Origin: Lysobacteraceae bacterium | Lineage (GTDB): Bacteria; Bdellovibrionota; UBA1018; JAGTJX01 | Assembly: GCA_023657465.1 (NCBI GenBank) | Contig: JAGTJX010000003.1 | Span: 39,436-71,435, forward strand | Length of the DNA: 32,000 nt | Direction of reading: 5' to 3' | Shown: positions 3,109-30,528 of the stretch, in pieces | Layout: each line of letters begins with the position of its first letter | How positions within the stretch are numbered: position 1 is the first letter of the stretch | Notes under the pieces: model-generated | Told to the model about the DNA's origin: nothing | Seen by the model: only the letters and a program-made list of their open reading frames with translations | Databases searched by the model: none | Program-made: the position numbers and the translations under genes

Positions 3109-4235
3109 GTTGGTTAAGTCGCGACTCCTCTCGTGAGAAAATCATTCACACTCTCAAATCCTGGACTCCAGGTGAGCCACTTCCTGTAGCAGAAATTCCT
3201 GAACTAGAAGAATGGTTCAAGCGGATCAATCAAATTGCATTGGGAGAGAAGGATCTCTGGCAGGGCATCTTAAATGCACAGCCTGATCCTGCGTGTTTAC
3301 TAAGCTTAGTAGGTAAAATCGAAGCGAAGAATCATAAATTCAAAGATAAATTCGGAGAAGGCAAGCGCATTGAGGATTCTGTGCGTGATCCAAAGGTTCT
3401 TGAGACTGTAGAAGGCGTACGCAAAGGATCGATAGGCGCTTCATCCAAGATCGAAGTCAAAATTTCTGAGAGATTCTATAAACTACGGGTCTCTCGCCTT
3501 GAGGCGTATGTTTATTGTGTGTTTCAGGATCAGACGGATCTCAAACATGCGATTGAAGACAGATCTCAGTTACTGAGTGATATCGCACACGAGTTACGTA
3601 CACCACTTACAGCCATCTTGGGTTTCAGTCAGACATTGAAGCAAGATCTGAAGACGACGCCGATCGAAGAGTGTGCGTCGTTCATCGAAATCATCGCACG
3701 AAACGCTGAGAGATTAGGGGTTCTGGTTAATGAGTTCTTAGATCTCACCAGGCTCGAATCCAATGCGTTTAAAATCAACCGTGAAGTGGTCGGAGTAGAG
3801 TTACTCTGTGCTCAGGTGCTTGATCAGTTGCGTTTCGCAATCGATGAAAAGATAATCGACCTACGGATCGATCTTCAGGTGAAGTCTCTCTCTGTGGACA
3901 AGGCTCTTTTTGAACGTGCGTTTCGCAATGTGATTGAGAATGCGATTAAGTATTCTCCTCCTAAGAGCAAGATGGAGATTAGATTTAAGGCTACGTCTGG
4001 TGGATTGCGAGTTGAAGTTCAAGATGAAGGTCCAGGGATTGCTAAGGAGTTCCAAGAGCGGATCTTCGATCGCTTCTTCCGTATTGAGACTTCCAGGGCG
4101 CGCGATCAAAAGATCAGTGGATCCGGACTTGGCTTGGCTCTCGTGAAGCGTATCGTGCAAGCTCATGGTGGCACAGTCGGTGTGGAGAGTGAACTTGGTC
4201 AGGGTTCGCTGTTCTGGATTGAGCTTAGGAGCTAG
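3099..4235 (+). CDS. PhoR-like sensor histidine kinase without obvious transmembrane segments (start probably 3105)
   Basis: H-box SDIAHELRTPLTAILGFSQTLK, N-box IENAIKYSPP, G-boxes DEGPGIAKEF and GSGLGLALVKRIV; overlaps the regulator gene. Confidence 0.88.
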   Translation: MGMSWLSRDSSREKIIHTLKSWTPGEPLPVAEIPELEEWFKRINQIALGEKDLWQGILNAQPDPACLLSLVGKIEAKNHKFKDKFGEGKRIEDSVRDPKVLETVEGVRKGSIGASSKIEVKISERFYKLRVSRLEAYVYCVFQDQTDLKHAIEDRSQLLSDIAHELRTPLTAILGFSQTLKQDLKTTPIEECASFIEIIARNAERLGVLVNEFLDLTRLESNAFKINREVVGVELLCAQVLDQLRFAIDEKIIDLRIDLQVKSLSVDKALFERAFRNVIENAIKYSPPKSKMEIRFKATSGGLRVEVQDEGPGIAKEFQERIFDRFFRIETSRARDQKISGSGLGLALVKRIVQAHGGTVGVESELGQGSLFWIELRS

Positions 4236-4412: not shown

Positions 4413-5606
4413 CTATTTAATTTTATTTAAAAACGATTCACGCTGTTCAGGATGAAGCTTCAGTCTCTGCTTCACAGCTTCTGCGAGATCTTCAAGCTCA
4501 GGAATTCCTGTCTTCATTGGCGCGCTTGCGCCACCTGATTTCAAATCACGAATGAGCTGATCTCGCTCAAGGAGTTGTTTCTGAAGAGACTGGATTTTAG
4601 ATTCGCTGCCTTTTGCGACGGGTGTATCTCCCATGTGAAGGAGCGTGATCTCAGGAAGTGAGCGATAACCGCTCTCAGTTTTAGAAATAAGAAGAGGCTC
4701 TTCTGCAAGAAGTTCTGAACCCACAGGTTCAAGCCAGATCGCACGAACGATAGGTGCAGTCATTCGCTCAGAAGGTTTAGTGCTCATGAAGATGAGTGTG
4801 ATCTCAAGTTGGTGAGGGGTAGATGACCACTGAACCCGCATGAAATCTGAGTACCTGGAAGCCGTACGTATTGGTGAGAGACCAGACTTAGTCTTAAGCC
4901 AGAAGGACTGAATGGTTTCATTATGTGGTGGAGTTGCAAGGTGAGTTCCGACTCTCACGACTGCTGTCTCAGAATCACAGGCGAAGTGGACGAAGGGGTT
5001 GCCAGATTTGCTCACTTCTGTAGAGAAAAGAAAATCCTTCACGCCATCAATTGCAGTTGCGATTGCGTGTCTGCGTTCTTTCCAAGGTCCTGCAAACTCT
5101 TGAAGCTCAAACCAACCCTCAGTCATGAGTGAGGTGTGTTCCTTGCCATTCCATTCATAGAAGTAGATGGGGGTTCCTGCGCGGAGTAGCGGCTTGATCC
5201 CTGTGCGAGTCTTGGGGGTGATCAGTGCAGAGATGAGATTTAAATTCTCAAGAGGAGTGTACTTCGTGAGATCGAATAAATAAAATCTTGGATAATCCGG
5301 AAGATCTGGAATGTTCTTGGGATCGATGACTTCTACTGAATATGCAGCGACTGTGGGTCCAGTGTCACGTGTGAGGCCGTAATACCCTTCGACCTTCTTC
5401 CAAGCAAGATACTTGTACCAAGGGAGCATGACGAGTGCGAACTTGCCCTTCTCCATGAGCTCGACTACAGATTCTTGAGAAAGTGTGCCGTCTATGGTTT
5501 GAACATCGATCGTGGGTTTCAGTGTAGCAATGACCTTAGCGACCGTCTTCGCTGATTCTCCGTCAAGCCTTTCGTCTAGTACCCAGGCGATGATTGGGCG
5601 TTTCAT
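4413..5606 (-). CDS. conserved-looking hypothetical protein with C-terminal coiled-coil-like segment
   Basis: 397-aa ORF MKRPIIAWVLDERLDGESAKTVAKVIATL..., 4-nt overlap with metG; no family recognised. Confidence 0.75.
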   Translation of the reverse strand: MKRPIIAWVLDERLDGESAKTVAKVIATLKPTIDVQTIDGTLSQESVVELMEKGKFALVMLPWYKYLAWKKVEGYYGLTRDTGPTVAAYSVEVIDPKNIPDLPDYPRFYLFDLTKYTPLENLNLISALITPKTRTGIKPLLRAGTPIYFYEWNGKEHTSLMTEGWFELQEFAGPWKERRHAIATAIDGVKDFLFSTEVSKSGNPFVHFACDSETAVVRVGTHLATPPHNETIQSFWLKTKSGLSPIRTASRYSDFMRVQWSSTPHQLEITLIFMSTKPSERMTAPIVRAIWLEPVGSELLAEEPLLISKTESGYRSLPEITLLHMGDTPVAKGSESKIQSLQKQLLERDQLIRDLKSGGASAPMKTGIPELEDLAEAVKQRLKLHPEQRESFLNKIK

Positions 5607-7159
5607 GCTTCAGCTTTCGGAAGTTCAACACGCATGAAGAGCGGAGCTTCGTTTGCAATCACGGTTCCTGGTTTGAGCGCCAAAAACTTTGAAGCTTCTG
5701 ACCAAGCACCGCTTGTACCACCTAGGCGCTTGAGTAATTCTTCGCACTTCGTAGGCATCACAGGAGTGAGGAGGATCGCTGCGATGCGCACACACTCAAG
5801 CGATATAGTGAGAGTTTCACCTGCATGAGGAAGATCAGTCTTAGCCATCTTCCAAGGTTCGCGATCAGCCAAGTACTGATTCGCATTGGTAAGCATATCG
5901 ATCACCACACCTAAAGCTTCTTGTAGTTCGTTCGATGCAAGGTGTGCTTCGAGTTTAGTGTGAGTGGAAAGTGCTACAGCTTTCAGGGCTTCAGACTTCT
6001 CAGAGAGTTTCTCTACGACTGGAAGCTGGCCGCCAAAGTACTTCGCAATCAGGCTGCAAGTACGACTGAGAAGATTACCGAAGTTATTGGAGAGTTCACT
6101 GTTCACCCTATTAATCACAAGTTCGATTGAGAATTGAGAATCATTGCCGAGACGAACATCTCTGGAGAGGAAGTATCTGAGAGCATCCACTCCGATGATG
6201 TTTTTCACATCGAGAGGCTTCACGACTGTGCCTTTGGACTTAGACATTTTCTCGTTACTTTGGGTCAACCACCAGCCATGAGCATAGATTGTACGTGGAA
6301 GCTCAAGACCTAAGGCCATGAGCATTGTTGGCCAATAGACCGAGTGAGTGGTGAGGATGTCCTTGCCGAGTAAGTGCATGACGGGGCTAGGGGACGCGTT
6401 CCACCACTTCTTGAACTCATCAGTCTTTCCAGATTGTTTGAGTCCCACACCAGTTGCGTAGTTCAAGAGAGCATCAAACCAAACATAGGTGACATAGTCG
6501 CGATCAAACGGAAGTTCAATTCCCCAAGAGAGTCTACTCTTAGGACGAGAGATACAGAGATCGTTCAGTGGCTGGCGTAAGAATCCCAAAACTTCGTTCT
6601 TACGGTATGAAGGCTCAATGAAACCAGGATTCTTTTCAATATGTGAGATCAAGCGCTCTTGATACTTAGACATTTTGAAGAAGTAATTCTTCTCAGTAAT
6701 CTTGGTGACTTCTGTTCCGGTGGGAGCTTTTCCATCCACGAGATCTTTCTCGGTGTAGAATATCTCATCGGCTTGTGCGTACCAGCCTTCGTATTCCTTG
6801 GTGTAGATTTCGCCCGCATCATGGAGTTGGCTTAAACAATCTTGGACAGCCTTCTTGTGAAATGAATCGGTTGTGCGAAAGAAGATGTCGTTACTGATAT
6901 TGAGTTCTTTCCAAATCGCGCGGAAGTTCTCAGCCATCTCATCGCAATGCTTCTTAGGATCGAGTCCTCGCTTCTCAGCTGCGGCCTGAACTTTCTGTCC
7001 ATGCTCGTCGACACCCGTGAGAAACAGAGTCGGAACACCCATGAGCCTGTGATAGCGAGCTAGCACGTCTGCCACGACAGTGCAGTACGCATGTCCAATA
7101 TGTGGGATGTCGTTCACGTAGTAGATCGGGGTGGTGATGTAGAAGGGTGCCTTGCTCAT
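5603..7159 (-). CDS. metG: methionyl-tRNA synthetase
   Basis: MSKAPFYITTPIYYVNDIPHIGHAYCTVVADVLARYHRLMG (HIGH), KMSKSKGTVVKP (KMSKS). The ORF extends to 7225 but the internal ATG at 7159 matches the expected N-terminus. Confidence 0.96.
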   Translation of the reverse strand: MSKAPFYITTPIYYVNDIPHIGHAYCTVVADVLARYHRLMGVPTLFLTGVDEHGQKVQAAAEKRGLDPKKHCDEMAENFRAIWKELNISNDIFFRTTDSFHKKAVQDCLSQLHDAGEIYTKEYEGWYAQADEIFYTEKDLVDGKAPTGTEVTKITEKNYFFKMSKYQERLISHIEKNPGFIEPSYRKNEVLGFLRQPLNDLCISRPKSRLSWGIELPFDRDYVTYVWFDALLNYATGVGLKQSGKTDEFKKWWNASPSPVMHLLGKDILTTHSVYWPTMLMALGLELPRTIYAHGWWLTQSNEKMSKSKGTVVKPLDVKNIIGVDALRYFLSRDVRLGNDSQFSIELVINRVNSELSNNFGNLLSRTCSLIAKYFGGQLPVVEKLSEKSEALKAVALSTHTKLEAHLASNELQEALGVVIDMLTNANQYLADREPWKMAKTDLPHAGETLTISLECVRIAAILLTPVMPTKCEELLKRLGGTSGAWSEASKFLALKPGTVIANEAPLFMRVELPKAEA

Positions 7160-26486: not shown

Positions 26487-27725
26487 GTGGTTAGTCCTAA
26501 TTGCTGTCAAGCTCTATCAATCATCAATCAGCACTATTTGCGGCCACAATCTGATTCTACTTCTCTGATATCTAAGCTCTGGGACTTCTGGCTATTAGGT
26601 GGTGCAAGCATTGTTTTTTGGGTGTTTATGATAACCCTTAAGCAACTCAAGGAATTTTCAGAACCATTGGAGAAACACTTCGTAGGTCTTGCTCCTGTTT
26701 TTGCCCTCTTACTGGTTTTCTGTAATTACCCGCACTTCATGATGTCCTATAAGTTTGCTTACGGGCAGGGGACGAAGTTTGTTTGGAAGAACTGGATCAG
26801 TCTCGTTGCTGTTCCTGTACTCCTGGCTGCGAGTTTTGGATTGGCATTCTTCCTATTCGAAACAGAGATCGATGCGTTTCAGTCTGTTGGGTTCATCAAT
26901 CTAGTCACAGATAAGGTGGGCTTGGACTTTCGTCTAGGTTCGCTGAAGAACTTAGGTACAGAGATACTCAGTTTCTCAGTGCTTCTCATGTTTCTTCTCG
27001 TGGGATGGCATTACTCCAAGCAAGTCTTCGGTTGTGTGATTCTCTACTCTCGCTATGAGAAGTATCCTCTCTCTCAGTTGCAAAGAAATTTAATCAAGTG
27101 GAGTTTGCTTTCTGTTGCTGTGTTTAATTTTCTTTATCTTTCAATCTATTCTCCTCAGTACAATTCTACTTCTGTTCCTAAGACTTATTTTCTGAATATT
27201 CCTTCTGTGCCTCTGGGATTACCAGGATGGTTTATTCCACTCAGTGAATTGATCGTTGGAGTACTCACAGTTGCAAGTGCTTACTTGATTTTCTATAGGA
27301 ACTACAAAAATAAAAAAATATTACCTAGCCTTAATCTCATCACGCCTTGGATCGCGTTTTATATCTGGTGGATTCCGGTTTCAAGTTTAGGTGAGTATTA
27401 TTTTCTTGCTGTGCCATTCTTCCATTCACTTCAGTATTTGGCTTTTGCATACAGAAGAGATGTTTCGCGTGCTCAGAATATGAAGAAGTTCAATTTTACT
27501 ATGTCAGTGAGAGTCGTGCTGCTTCTGTTTATGGGGCTTATAACGTTTGAGCTTCTACCTAGTTTCTTAGATTCCTACTCCGAGAGTTACTGGAATTTTA
27601 GGACGTGGTTCTTCATGATTTCGATTCCGGTATTCATTAATATTCATCATTACTTCATAGATAGTGTGACGTGGAAGTTTGAATCCAAAGAGGTGAGTGA
27701 GAGTTTATTAAAAAATTGGAGGTGA
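26487..27725 (+). CDS. multi-pass membrane protein of unknown function
   Basis: 412-aa ORF with about 10 hydrophobic segments; C-terminal FINIHHYFIDSVTWKF. Confidence 0.75.
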   Translation: MVSPNCCQALSIINQHYLRPQSDSTSLISKLWDFWLLGGASIVFWVFMITLKQLKEFSEPLEKHFVGLAPVFALLLVFCNYPHFMMSYKFAYGQGTKFVWKNWISLVAVPVLLAASFGLAFFLFETEIDAFQSVGFINLVTDKVGLDFRLGSLKNLGTEILSFSVLLMFLLVGWHYSKQVFGCVILYSRYEKYPLSQLQRNLIKWSLLSVAVFNFLYLSIYSPQYNSTSVPKTYFLNIPSVPLGLPGWFIPLSELIVGVLTVASAYLIFYRNYKNKKILPSLNLITPWIAFYIWWIPVSSLGEYYFLAVPFFHSLQYLAFAYRRDVSRAQNMKKFNFTMSVRVVLLLFMGLITFELLPSFLDSYSESYWNFRTWFFMISIPVFINIHHYFIDSVTWKFESKEVSESLLKNWR

Positions 27726-27792
27726 CGCCCGGACTCGAACCGGGAGATAACGGTTTTGCAAACCGTTCCCTTAGCCATTTGGGTACGTCACC
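27717..27792 (-). tRNA. tRNA-Cys(GCA), CCA encoded
   Basis: ggtgacgtacccaaatggctaagggaacggtttgcaaaaccgttatctcccggttcgagtccgggcgtcacctcca folds as a cloverleaf: 7-bp acceptor, anticodon loop ttGCAaa, T-arm cccggttcgagtccggg, discriminator U. Confidence 0.96.
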
Positions 27793-27854: not shown

Positions 27855-27926
27855 CGATGGGCTGCTCTTGGGATCGTGGGACTGATCGCATTCATCATTG
27901 GTTTACTCATTGGAAATCGTAAATAA
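27855..27926 (+). pseudogene. C-terminal remnant resembling a DUF883/ElaB-YqjD-type protein
   Basis: RWAALGIVGLIAFIIGLLIGNRK* in an open frame directly preceded by a TGA stop and without a start codon. Confidence 0.5.
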
Positions 27927-27927
27927 A

Positions 27928-28311
27928 ATGGAAAAGCAGGATCTCAAGCCTCTTTTTGTTTTGGTCAGGCTATTCTTCGTACGAGAGAGTTCGCGCCGTC
28001 TTCAAAGCAAGGGGATTCTGTTTTATTTGAAGGCATTAAGAGCATTACGTGGTGGCGTTCAAGGCTCACTCATCGTGTTTCACTTCTTGCAGACTATTAT
28101 GCTTTCGTTTTTGTGTGCAGTCACTGCAGAAGTATTCCTTGCAGTGGAGGATCAACACACACGCTTACTCATGCTGCTTGGTTTTTTTAGTTTTCTTTTT
28201 GTGATCCCATTCATTGGAGTCGCAGCACTCTTCTCAGAAAAGCTTTGGTACAGAGCTAGCGGAGCAGAGAAGATGGTTGAAGAATTCACCCTCTCGAAAT
28301 CTACTCACTAA
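27928..28311 (+). CDS. small membrane protein of unknown function
   Basis: MEKQDLKPLFVLVRLFF...; two long hydrophobic segments; start at 27928 preferred over 27898. Confidence 0.6.
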   Translation: MEKQDLKPLFVLVRLFFVRESSRRLQSKGILFYLKALRALRGGVQGSLIVFHFLQTIMLSFLCAVTAEVFLAVEDQHTRLLMLLGFFSFLFVIPFIGVAALFSEKLWYRASGAEKMVEEFTLSKSTH

Positions 28312-28985
28312 ACCCCTGTGACGTCAGAGCCCCAAATTGCTTTATGAAGCTGGGTCTGAAGTCTTACAGACAACTTATCTTCAATGATCTTCTCAGCTAA
28401 CCACTTGAGCTCTACTCCCGGGAATTTTCCAGGCGCCATCTTTGCAGGCTGTACAGGGGAGAAGAGTGTGAGAAGCGAATTTGGATAATCAGTTGAACTG
28501 ATCACGTCACGCGCCCAGAAGTAATCATTCTGAGAGGCAATGACGAATTTGATTTCGTCTGAAGGTTTGAGAAATTTAAAATTATTCACGAATTCACCAC
28601 GAGACATCGCACTTGATGGAGTCTTGATATCCATAATGACTCTTGCGAAGGGTGCAATAGCTTCTATTGAGACTTCACCGTGAGTTTCGATGCTAACGGC
28701 ATAGCCTTGGCTTACAAGTGCACGTGCAAGCTCTTTGGTATTGCGCTGAAGGAGTGGCTCTCCACCCGTGAGGAGTACGTGCTTCGTTTCATGAGGCTTG
28801 ACCGTATCAAGGATCTCTGGAATCGACATGCGTTTTCCACCATGAAACGCATAAGCCGAATCACAGTAAGTGCATCTGAGATTGCATCCTGTGAGTCTAA
28901 TAAAACTGAAGCGTTCCCCAGTAAGCGAAGTCTCACCTTGTAGGGAGTGGAAGATTTCAGTGATTTGGAGATCAGGAAACGCCAT
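28308..28985 (-). CDS. queE: 7-carboxy-7-deazaguanine synthase
   Basis: ITEIFHSLQGETSLTGERFSFIRLTGCNLRCTYCDSAYAF (radical SAM CxxxCxxC), HVLLTGGEPLLQ, SIETHGEV, IMDIKTPSS. Confidence 0.93.
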   Translation of the reverse strand: MAFPDLQITEIFHSLQGETSLTGERFSFIRLTGCNLRCTYCDSAYAFHGGKRMSIPEILDTVKPHETKHVLLTGGEPLLQRNTKELARALVSQGYAVSIETHGEVSIEAIAPFARVIMDIKTPSSAMSRGEFVNNFKFLKPSDEIKFVIASQNDYFWARDVISSTDYPNSLLTLFSPVQPAKMAPGKFPGVELKWLAEKIIEDKLSVRLQTQLHKAIWGSDVTGV

Positions 28986-29013
28986 TGCTGTGTCATAACA
29001 TTAGTCTTAAAAG

Positions 29014-29030
29014 TTGCACAGTTTGTGCAA
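29014..29030. promoter_or_regulatory. palindrome TTGCACAGTTTGTGCAA, putative operator
   Basis: TTGCAC-N5-GTGCAA, 29 bp upstream of the queE start. Confidence 0.65.
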
Positions 29031-29064
29031 GAAAATGATTTTTTTGAGTCGAACTGAACATTTC

Positions 29065-29081
29065 TTGCACAAAACGTGCAA
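29065..29081. promoter_or_regulatory. palindrome TTGCACAAAACGTGCAA, putative operator
   Basis: Second copy of TTGCAC-N5-GTGCAA, exactly 51 bp from the first. Confidence 0.65.
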
Positions 29082-29105
29082 GATTTTTAAGTTTATCTAT
29101 CACCC

Positions 29106-29149
29106 AAAAATGGTGAAGGCGGGAAACCCATCCAGAGATTCCCGCCTTC
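29106..29149 (-). terminator. intrinsic terminator of the GEMM RNA
   Basis: Minus strand gaaggcgggaa-tctctggatgggt-ttcccgccttc-accattttt; 11-bp stem. Confidence 0.75.
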
Positions 29150-29388
29150 TTGAGATTGAAGAGGTCGCGCACCGAAGTACGGACCCGCCTTTGAACTTTT
29201 TGTCTTCCTTTGGCAACCCGGCTGACATGAAGTGGTAGGGGTAGACCACCTTTTAGTCCCGTTGGCTTTGCGTGCACAGGCTTTCACCTGGCTTGCCTTT
29301 TTCAAAGGGGTAGAATCAATCCTGATTCTGCCTCTCCAGACGTCCCCCGACCGTGGGAAACGTAATCTTTTTGCAAATCTTTCCTTAA
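29106..29388 (-). ncRNA. c-di-GMP-I (GEMM) riboswitch-type RNA; aptamer core 29207-29308
   Basis: Minus-strand cctttgaaaaaGGCAAgCCAGGTGAAAGCCTGtgcACGCAAAGCCaacGGgaCUAAA...AGCCGGGTTGCCaaagg: GNRA-capped P2, ACGCAAAGCC core, P3, closing P1. Confidence 0.88.
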
Positions 29389-29394
29389 CTAATG

Positions 29395-29423
29395 ATTTTA
29401 TGCCTAACGCATAGCGGTGTCAA
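29395..29423 (-). promoter_or_regulatory. sigma70-type promoter of the GEMM RNA
   Basis: Minus strand TTGACA (29423-29418), 17-nt spacer ccgctatgcgttaggca, TAAAAT (29400-29395). Confidence 0.8.
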
Positions 29424-29487: not shown

Positions 29488-30528
29488 GTGTCTAACCTGT
29501 CGATATTATTATCTATTTTAGGTGCTTTAGCGGATCAGTCGCCGCAACTTGGTGTAGATATTCATGATTATCATTTGAAGTCGACAGCGGGAATCACTAT
29601 CCTTAATCATTACGGAGCAATCGAGGTTCAGGGATGGTCATTAGATAAAGTACGCGTGGAAGTGAAGAAGTCTACGAATGGGAATCTCAGTTTTGAGGTC
29701 GATCAATCTGAAAACAAGTTCGAGATTAGAACGACCGCAGGCAAAAACCAGTTTCTAGCTGAAAAAATCAAAACCAGATCCAAGCTCCCTGAAGGTGGAA
29801 TCGATCTCTTAGTGCGAGCACCTGCTCACGTGCCGCTCACCCTTCTTTCTAAGAATTCTAAAATCGTTTTAAAAGGTTGGGGTGCACTCACAGAGATTAG
29901 CGCTAGTCATGGTGATATCAAGATTGAGAACATCACATCTCCTGTGACGAGAATCGCTTGCCCAGATTGCAAAATCCGCATCGGAGATGCCAAGGGAACC
30001 ATTAAAATTTCAGGTGGCAAAGGAAACATTGATCTCAAGCAAATCGAATCGCAGGATCTCTTCATAGAATCCACCTCAGGAATAGTGAATCTAGAGCAAG
30101 TCTCTGGATCTGGAATTCTCGTCACTGACTCAGGCCAAATGAGAGCCAAGAAACTTGAAGGTCAGTACGCGTTCAAATCCAGATCTGCAGAAGTGCTGCT
30201 CACAGAAACCAAAGGTTCTATTCATGGTGAGTCTCGCTCTGGCAATATTCATATTGAAGTGAAGGAGTGGACTTCATTAGATAAACAACTCATCAGCAGT
30301 GAGGAAGGTTCCATTCACGTCTCACTTCCTCCTAGTTTTTCAGGAGAAATAGAAGCGGTTTCTCAAATGGGGAAACTCAATATGGACTTTCCACTCACGA
30401 AAACAGTTGCAAAGAAAATCTATGGACCTGAACCCATGAATCACTACATGGGTAAAGCGGGTCGTGGTGGAGAGCTTTTAAGTATCCAATCGACTAAAGG
30501 GAATATATGGCTGCTTCAAGCAATCTAA
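29488..30528 (+). CDS. DUF4097-like beta-helical/adhesin-like repeat protein
   Basis: Repeated short beta-turn units (GDIKIENITSPV, GTIKISGGKGNIDLKQIESQDLFIESTSGIVNLEQVSG, GSIHGESRSGNIHIEV). Confidence 0.65.
   Translation: MSNLSILLSILGALADQSPQLGVDIHDYHLKSTAGITILNHYGAIEVQGWSLDKVRVEVKKSTNGNLSFEVDQSENKFEIRTTAGKNQFLAEKIKTRSKLPEGGIDLLVRAPAHVPLTLLSKNSKIVLKGWGALTEISASHGDIKIENITSPVTRIACPDCKIRIGDAKGTIKISGGKGNIDLKQIESQDLFIESTSGIVNLEQVSGSGILVTDSGQMRAKKLEGQYAFKSRSAEVLLTETKGSIHGESRSGNIHIEVKEWTSLDKQLISSEEGSIHVSLPPSFSGEIEAVSQMGKLNMDFPLTKTVAKKIYGPEPMNHYMGKAGRGGELLSIQSTKGNIWLLQAI

Follow-up and report, generated by a model that had tools for sequence, protein, structure and literature searches.

Riboswitches that sense cyclic di-GMP (c-di-GMP) are well known, and nearly all of them are read as simple leaders. 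One RNA that has been described differently is merRNA of Bdellovibrio bacteriovorus HD100, which is 445 nt long and encoded at 1,073,741-1,074,185 on the minus strand (Karunker et al. 2013, PMC3627812), with Bd1131 (BCAT) and Bd1134 (mrp) as its neighbours (Table S1, PMC3627812). It was reported to have no conserved downstream open reading frame (ORF) and not to be conserved outside the Bdellovibrio lineage; its 3' end lies ~32 nt from Bd1131, a gene whose attack-phase expression is 15-fold higher, and ligand buffering was proposed for it (PMC3627812). Vc2-containing small RNAs of Vibrio cholerae are a further case, as their 3' ends arise by protection from degradation and not by termination (Pursley and Waters 2019, doi 10.1101/617340). 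In this work, we analyzed a 32-kb stretch of DNA (positions 39,436 to 71,435 of contig JAGTJX010000003.1; hereafter the window) in which a c-di-GMP-I (GEMM-I) aptamer lies on the minus strand, upstream of a queE-like gene. The usual RNA regulators of queuosine genes are preQ1 riboswitches. Both they and the RNA described here are RNA elements upstream of a queuosine-pathway gene, but their ligand and fold are entirely different: here a second messenger and not a pathway intermediate would be sensed, and queE alone is linked.

That the queE locus holds a genuine c-di-GMP-I aptamer inside a conserved larger RNA is certain. As an explanation of the locus as a whole we favor, with confidence somewhat short of even, a discrete, bistable c-di-GMP-sensing RNA that is tied to queE, that would form a transcription unit separate from it, and whose main product would be the terminated RNA. 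The locus would yield a structured RNA of ~283 nt (~29388 to ~29106, minus strand) with the aptamer at its center. Without ligand, this RNA would take a closed form in which two long-range helices, P0 and P-1, are paired and the aptamer is unlocked. With c-di-GMP, the aptamer helix P1 would form, the freed G-run would zip with a downstream C-run into a longer hairpin, and P-1 would be loosened. The terminator would be constitutive, leaving the terminated RNA as the main product. The parts of the RNA are given below from 5' to 3'; counts of members refer to alignment A2, which covers the whole RNA in 36 family sequences.

29395..29423 (-): sigma-70-type promoter TTGACA-N17-TAAAAT, with 11/12 consensus positions
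29340..29363 (-): leader hairpin L1, in the minimum free energy (MFE) fold; a hairpin in 36/36 members, with differing stem sequences
29331..29338 (-): 5' strand of the outer helix P-1, UGGAGAGG (family consensus UGAAGAGG); pairs with 29164-29157
29312..29329 (-): hairpin L2, in the window fold; at least 4 bp in 28/36 members, variable in sequence
29301..29310 (-): shared 5' strand CCCCUUUGAA, whose partner is either the P1 3' strand or the distal element (P0)
29209..29307 (-): c-di-GMP-I aptamer (P2 with GAAA tetraloop, P3, ACGCAAAGCC core), RF01051 at 61.1 bits
29207..29212 (-): P1 3' strand CAAAGG, followed by a conserved purine-rich tail; 6/6 pairs standard in 36/36 sequences
29184..29195 (-): distal anti-P1 element UUCAAAGGCGGG (family consensus UUCAAAGGGGGG), the 3' strand of P0; a conserved block found in the family only
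29163..29186 (-): hairpin Pb, in 36/36 members when folded alone; its G-run and C-run can extend it when P0 is open
29157..29164 (-): 3' strand of P-1, CCUCUUCA; A2 columns 343-350, nearly invariant
29106..29149 (-): terminator, a hairpin at 29149-29115 followed by ACCA and UUUUU (29110-29106); -25.1 kcal/mol

Aptamer and Ligand Pocket

An Rfam scan of the window matched RF01051 (c-di-GMP-I; model length 87, gathering score 35 bits) at 29307..29209 (-) over model positions 1-87/87, with 61.1 bits and E = 8.5e-10, the only other Rfam match being to tRNA-Cys (27792-27720). A match to this model had been predicted for 29207-29308 by an earlier note on this DNA, and the GEMM-I architecture that it had described is likewise all in place: the minus strand carries the P1 strands CCTTTG (29308-29303) and CAAAGG (29212-29207) as well as CAGGT-GAAA-GCCTG, ACGCAAAGCC and GCCGGGTTGCC. 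Changes that compensate each other on both sides were observed in A2 at 6/6 P2 pairs and 4/4 inner P3 pairs, with 94.6% of cells paired, and the covariation score of P2 and P3 was reached by 0/500 shuffles. P1 (CCUUUG with CAAAGG) is 100% paired over the 36 sequences. Invariant in all of them are the GG of AAAGGCAA, the middle A of GCAAAG, and the GCC before CAAAGG, which we take to be G20, A47, and C92 in the Vc2 numbering of the published structures. At position 20, it is G rather than A that separates c-di-GMP sensors from sensors of cyclic GMP-AMP (cGAMP). Judged by its sequence, the aptamer would be expected to bind c-di-GMP.

The same P1, P2 with GAAA tetraloop, P3, ACGCAAAGCC core, and equivalents of G20, A47, and C92 are found in members of the Rfam c-di-GMP-I family, e.g., Vc2 of Vibrio cholerae. 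In contrast to these, the aptamer here is embedded in an RNA of ~280 nt with two enclosing long-range helices and three extra hairpins. It also differs in its P3 loop, (U)ACCCC(GA), at A2 columns ~154-160 (window 29236-29240), which is almost invariant in the family, unconserved in the Rfam consensus, and outside the Rfam model. Since the ACCCC loop and the conserved G-run in the distal element are complementary, the two may form a pseudoknot. A second hairpin with the same ACCCC-type loop was seen inside Pb in two other loci (L059 and L066).

A different model, RF03167 (c-di-GMP-I-GGC), scored best for L003 (3363-3460) and for L010-L012 (1658-1756), whereas for the window the best-scoring model was RF01051. 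We rejected the idea of a variant with altered specificity, for which the RF03167 consensus has the core ACGCGAAGCC, as L003 and L010-L012 retain the canonical ACGCAAAGCC; their assignment to RF03167 is explained by competition between models.

Family of Homologous Loci

Related loci were collected by two routes. Starting from QueE gave 8 distinct homologous loci, their QueE proteins being 62-82% identical, and starting from the RNA, with a DNA pattern derived from the aptamer, gave at least 120 metagenome loci; altogether, 175 loci were fetched. The A2 profile gave full-length matches of 134-231 bits in at least 43 loci (duplicates included), plus at least 5 copies cut by contig ends. On at least ~90 other GEMM-I loci, the same profile matched the aptamer alone, at 61 bits or less. 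By these sequence matches, the family comprises at least ~40 loci from Bdellovibrionota-type genomes. Its conserved structure outside the aptamer amounts to ~180 nt; in A2, the sequence conservation of this extension equals that of the aptamer core, and the extension matched no Rfam family.

We considered whether the aptamer match or its flanks could be a chance resemblance or a decaying, functionless relic. As a general caution, promoter and terminator motifs may be mere consensus matches; the aptamer match, however, spans the full model at the E-value given above, P2 and P3 covary, and ~280 nt have been kept across loci with QueE identities of 55-82%. That aptamer, terminator hairpin, and flanking blocks all recur in at least ~40 homologous loci is far beyond chance, and the comparative data have effectively refuted this explanation already.

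The association with queE, which like the ~180 nt of structure outside the aptamer was not part of the earlier note, is close. Of the RNA-first loci with enough downstream DNA, 26/27 have queE downstream of the RNA (55-73% identity; among the matches listed), and a same-strand GEMM-I aptamer was found upstream of queE in 8/8 distinct QueE-first loci. The DUF4097 gene that lies divergently upstream in the window does so in ~22/28 family loci with enough flanking sequence. The exception, and the sole orphan among the 27 evaluable RNA-first loci (among the matches listed), is L110, in which an intact RNA (5563-5839, 215 bits) has neither queE nor DUF4097 nearby. Its neighbors are an ORF of the XRE-type helix-turn-helix kind and a convergent endonuclease/exonuclease/phosphatase-like ORF after the RNA.

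Two further observations were made among the fetched loci. In L001, from Bacteriovoracaceae bacterium UBA1018, the sole relative on a genome contig, a masked run of N (478-516) directly upstream of the aptamer hides L1, P-1, and L2. Two or three tandem aptamers, without the family extension and without queE, are present in L054, L058, L062, L071, L080, L086, L121, L156, L157, and L160, all of which came from the DNA pattern of the RNA-first route.

Alternative Helices and Modeled Switch

In A2, the order of elements is promoter, L1, UGAAGAGG, L2, CCCCCUUUGAA, aptamer, CCAAAGGAGGA, an optional hairpin L3 (in 30 of the 36 members folded), UUCAAAGGGGGGUCC, a loop, GGACCCCCUCUUC, terminator hairpin, and U-rich tail. 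P0 is formed by CCCCCUUUGAA with UUCAAAGGGGG (94.9% paired over the 36 sequences) and P-1 by UGAAGAGG with CCUCUUCA (94.4% paired). As P0 and P1 use the same 5' strand, they are mutually exclusive. Each of the helices P1, P0, and P-1 shows one or two compensatory changes, or wobble changes. Where a C of the shared strand has changed to U, the matching A is found in the P1 partner in one locus (L116) and in the P0 partner in another (L155). The near-invariance of these blocks would be expected if each strand had to fit two alternative partners.

Thermodynamic MFE folding was carried out on the 36 members, either unconstrained or with P1 and the aptamer helices forced. Unconstrained, P1 was present in 0/36 members, and P0 and P-1 were present together in ~22/36, the window included, where the MFE fold has 8/11 pairs of P0 and 7/8 pairs of P-1. 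Forcing P1 and the aptamer helices cost 0.4-11.6 kcal/mol (median ~4; 1.7 for the window). In the forced state, the G-run pairs with the downstream C-run, Pb lengthens, and P-1 often opens. According to this model, a ligand of nanomolar or tighter affinity could pay the penalty, the published dissociation constant for c-di-GMP riboswitch binding being ~1 nM, and the penalty would shift the response toward higher ligand concentrations.

Some other features of the RNA were followed up and set aside. A partner swap between L1 and the terminator (GGCCC/GGGCC in the consensus) was dropped, as the resemblance is lost in members with other stems. The L1 loop (A2 columns ~20-40) has a CsrA-type-like A(N)GGA in 25/36 members; a role as a CsrA sponge was rejected as a global property, since GGA is no more frequent over the whole RNA than in dinucleotide shuffles (mean z = -0.5). 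Inspection of the alignment showed that the start codon of a small ORF after the conserved Shine-Dalgarno-like AAAGGAGGA is not conserved. The U-tail is complementary to GAAAAAGG of the aptamer in some members, and no covariation was found for this pairing.

Predicted Transcription Unit and Its Relation to queE

The promoter stands out in the window: TTGACA-N17-TAWAAT has one match in the 32 kb, against 0.02 expected from shuffles. The closest relative, L002 (QueE 82% identical), has an identical promoter, and in other members TTGnnn-N16-18-TAnnnT occupies the corresponding position. The terminator stem, GAAGGCGGGAA...UUCCCGCCUUC, was missed by a simple terminator scan because its loop exceeds 8 nt and its U-run begins 4 nt past the stem. 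At the terminator position, 36/36 members have a hairpin (-20 to -36 kcal/mol) and, after it, a U-rich tail. With a start placed near 29388 from the position of the -10 element, the transcript would be ~283 nt (29388 to 29106, minus strand), and this sequence folds better than 200/200 shuffles (z = -2.85). The near-consensus promoter (29423..29395, minus strand), the strong hairpin with U-run at 29149-29106, and the motif-predicted length all agree with what the earlier note had read here, namely TTGACA-N17-TAAAAT, a terminator, and a transcript of about 280 nt. The RNA is probably made as a discrete species of ~280 nt. In the Vc2 small RNAs, the aptamer is likewise part of a discrete small RNA, and the fate of the RNA, not only that of a downstream gene, is ligand-dependent (Pursley and Waters 2019). 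There, however, the aptamer is the 3' end of the RNA, whereas here it is central and a strong terminator follows.

The surroundings of the RNA contain the following features.

29488..30528 (+): divergent DUF4097 (toastrack, LiaG-like) gene; Pfam DUF4097 3.9e-15
29081-29065 and 29030-29014 (no strand): two perfect palindromes TTGCAC-N5-GTGCAA, 51 bp apart; no other match in the window (0.08 expected)
28992..29000 (-): extended -10-like TGtTATGAC, a TGNTA motif, 6 nt upstream of the queE ATG
28308..28985 (-): queE-like radical SAM gene, 225 aa (7-carboxy-7-deazaguanine synthase family); Pfam Radical_SAM 9.2e-14
27717..27792 (-): tRNA-Cys (GCA), downstream of queE and syntenic; found by ARAGORN and Rfam

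One alternative to the explanation that we favor is a classical cis transcriptional riboswitch, in which the RNA is the 5' leader of queE, c-di-GMP alters the terminator at 29149-29106, and read-through switches queE. The RNA lies upstream of queE on the same strand in nearly all loci, as counted above, and every member has a terminator between aptamer and gene. The U-run and the queE start are often just 20-40 nt apart in the family, P1 has the conserved competitor expected of an expression platform, and the 5' strand of P-1 (GAAGAGGC) and the base of the terminator 5' arm both contain GAGGC, with GAGGG in both in one clade. We regard this as a serious rival, albeit a somewhat unlikely one, and it keeps this standing because the general riboswitch prior is strong and the adjacency of RNA and queE is nearly absolute.

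However, folding revealed no structure that excludes the terminator. The hairpin was present in 36/36 members in both states, aptamer forced or free, and when transcripts were cut short ahead of the 3' arm, occupancy of the 5' arm was the same (0.57 vs 0.57, aptamer forced vs not), so that no ligand-dependent antiterminator was found by MFE folding of the 36 members with and without the forced aptamer. In a comparison of own with shuffled complementarity, the preference of the P-1 5' strand for the 3' arm of its own terminator was weak and non-significant (permutation p = 0.09). An apparently constitutive terminator suggests that this is an RNA gene that senses c-di-GMP and not simply a 5' leader.

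The start of queE argues in the same direction, since the gene has its own -10-like motif beside the start codon. TGNTA(N4) occurs at most 22 nt from the queE start in 22/34 family loci, its end most often lying 6 nt before the start codon; the background frequency at random positions is 4.2%. In the family loci, queE is mostly without a Shine-Dalgarno sequence. The layout of a -10 element, then 6-7 nt, then ATG is shared by several other genes of the window, e.g., surE and the TP_methylase gene. This suggests leaderless mRNAs, with queE itself being leaderless or having a very short leader. In addition, the RNA and queE can be apart. In the window, 120 nt, including the palindromes, lie between terminator and gene. 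In L002, a 225-aa ORF (3291-3968) with a signal-peptide-like N-terminus and its own -10-like and Shine-Dalgarno-like signals lies between the RNA and queE, and the TGNTA motif stays with queE despite it. L110 retains the RNA without queE, and an extension as conserved as the aptamer core would be unusual for an expression platform. Based on the constitutive-looking terminator, the promoter-like motif of queE, the strongly conserved extension, the DNA that separates RNA and gene in the window and in L002, and the orphan copy, we favor a separate transcription unit.

Several points weigh against that conclusion. The general prior is that an aptamer and terminator upstream of a same-strand gene form a cis riboswitch; the adjacency of RNA and queE (26/27) is slightly tighter than that of DUF4097 and RNA (~22/28), and many members have the short spacer described above. 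MFE modeling ignores co-transcriptional kinetics and tertiary contacts, so antiterminators can be missed. P0 and P-1 are nearly invariant, and direct covariation support for them is accordingly thin. The lone orphan copy could stem from a recent rearrangement or from an assembly error, and our statements on promoter strength, on the 3' end, and on where queE transcription starts are deduced from motifs.

For the separate, terminated RNA that we favor, we infer ligand binding, a switch of form, constitutive termination, and a downstream consequence. An effect on queE could come about via residual read-through or promoter interference, or the RNA could act through its ligand-dependent conformation or stability. 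Possible outputs would include RNA stability, as in the Vc2 small RNAs, ligand buffering, as proposed for merRNA, and the binding of a partner.

Comparison with merRNA

The earlier note had viewed this locus as an equivalent of merRNA. In the strict sense, the RNA would then be a true counterpart: massively expressed in attack phase, soaking up c-di-GMP and releasing it on a change of state, with no part in the expression of queE. In both cases, a c-di-GMP-I aptamer is part of a longer non-coding RNA that has a promoter and a 3' end of its own, and both come from the same phylum, although the boundaries here are deduced from motifs, and both have been proposed to act as RNAs and not as classical leaders. 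The near-consensus promoter of the window and the orphan copy in L110 fit a counterpart, and the competing P0 would make binding tunable and reversible, as a buffer needs. As merRNA also ends ~32 nt from its neighbor Bd1131, it and the queE-linked RNA may share a layout.

Against this, the RNA here is ~283 nt and not 445 nt long, and its neighbors are DUF4097 and queE instead of BCAT and mrp. No BCAT gene was found in the 175 fetched loci with tblastn and IlvE, and we therefore rejected orthology by synteny. The top hits of protein searches included no QueE named as B. bacteriovorus. The RNA lacks two features of merRNA, the orthologous position and the absence of a conserved downstream ORF, since queE is conserved downstream here; moreover, merRNA was reported from the Bdellovibrio lineage only. 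Equivalence to merRNA is thus not established, and we consider a true counterpart improbable. This may nevertheless be compatible with a similar mode of action.

Genomic Surroundings

The QueE of the window gave a full-length match to NCBIfam TIGR04349 (QueE) of 239.5 bits, below its 300-bit cut-off. In E. coli, QueE also inhibits cell division, a moonlighting function limited to those enterobacterial QueE proteins that carry the E45-W67 insert. As the window QueE matches the E. coli-type model weakly, we retained this idea as remote speculation only. No queC, queD, queF, tgt, or other queuosine gene was found among the window genes scanned, and the rest of the window holds housekeeping genes, including metG, trmD, rplS, rnhB, and surE. 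Between queE and tRNA-Cys lies a 137-aa ORF (27898-28311, plus strand) with hydrophobic stretches and no Pfam match, which converges on queE, with a 4-nt overlap at the queE stop codon.

The two palindromes between the RNA and queE appear to be specific to the window, as TTGCAC-N5-GTGCAA had zero matches among the 175 loci that were fetched. The second palindrome overlaps, by its right half, the -35 position of the putative queE promoter, and the pair looks like a lineage-specific set of operators; we consider them possible, candidate operators between RNA and queE. Hits to miRNA families of Rfam at 29010-29083 were far below threshold and reflect the two palindromes.

A tRNA lies downstream of queE in most QueE-fetched loci. 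Just past DUF4097, the 5' end of a 16S rRNA gene was seen in L004 (1-116), L005 (1-116), and L007 (1-557), which indicates that the block of DUF4097, RNA, queE, and tRNA abuts an rRNA operon in some members. The named relatives of the QueE and methionyl-tRNA synthetase of the host are from Bdellovibrionales, Oligoflexia, and Bacteriovoracaceae (~60-64% identity), which points to a deep Bdellovibrionota-type lineage and not to B. bacteriovorus. The source protein, MCM0605987.1, from a metagenome-assembled genome (982-kb contig), is labeled "Xanthomonadaceae bacterium", and other relatives are unclassified bacteria (Pseudomonadota, Proteobacteria, "bacterium") or from Bdellovibrionota-type groups. 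By these protein relationships, the label "Xanthomonadaceae bacterium" is probably wrong.

Implications

The aptamer class is known. In the searchable literature, we found neither a description of the family RNA nor a report linking a c-di-GMP riboswitch to queE, and as far as the literature was checked, the clamp architecture and the association with queE are undescribed. In contrast to the usual reading of c-di-GMP riboswitches, conservation outside the aptamer equals that of the ligand pocket in this RNA, which also contains its own competitor of P1 and ends in a terminator that appears not to be regulated.

A wider hypothesis, which we hold to be unlikely, is that a stand-alone, ligand-gated RNA of ~280-310 nt is found throughout the phylum. 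The P0/P-1 double clamp would set its threshold for c-di-GMP, and the open or closed state would be its output, as a buffer or a trans-acting regulator that links c-di-GMP to queE and 7-deazaguanine/queuosine metabolism in predatory bacteria; merRNA would be a relocated and enlarged member.

If true, the family would provide a tractable and phylogenetically broad case of a riboswitch within an RNA gene, an idea raised for merRNA, and would show how an aptamer of picomolar-to-nanomolar affinity could be detuned to physiological ligand levels. If the RNA is instead an ordinary queE riboswitch, its association with queE would still be new, and its expression platform unusually elaborate. The finding suggests a connection, unreported so far, of c-di-GMP signaling with queE in predatory bacteria.

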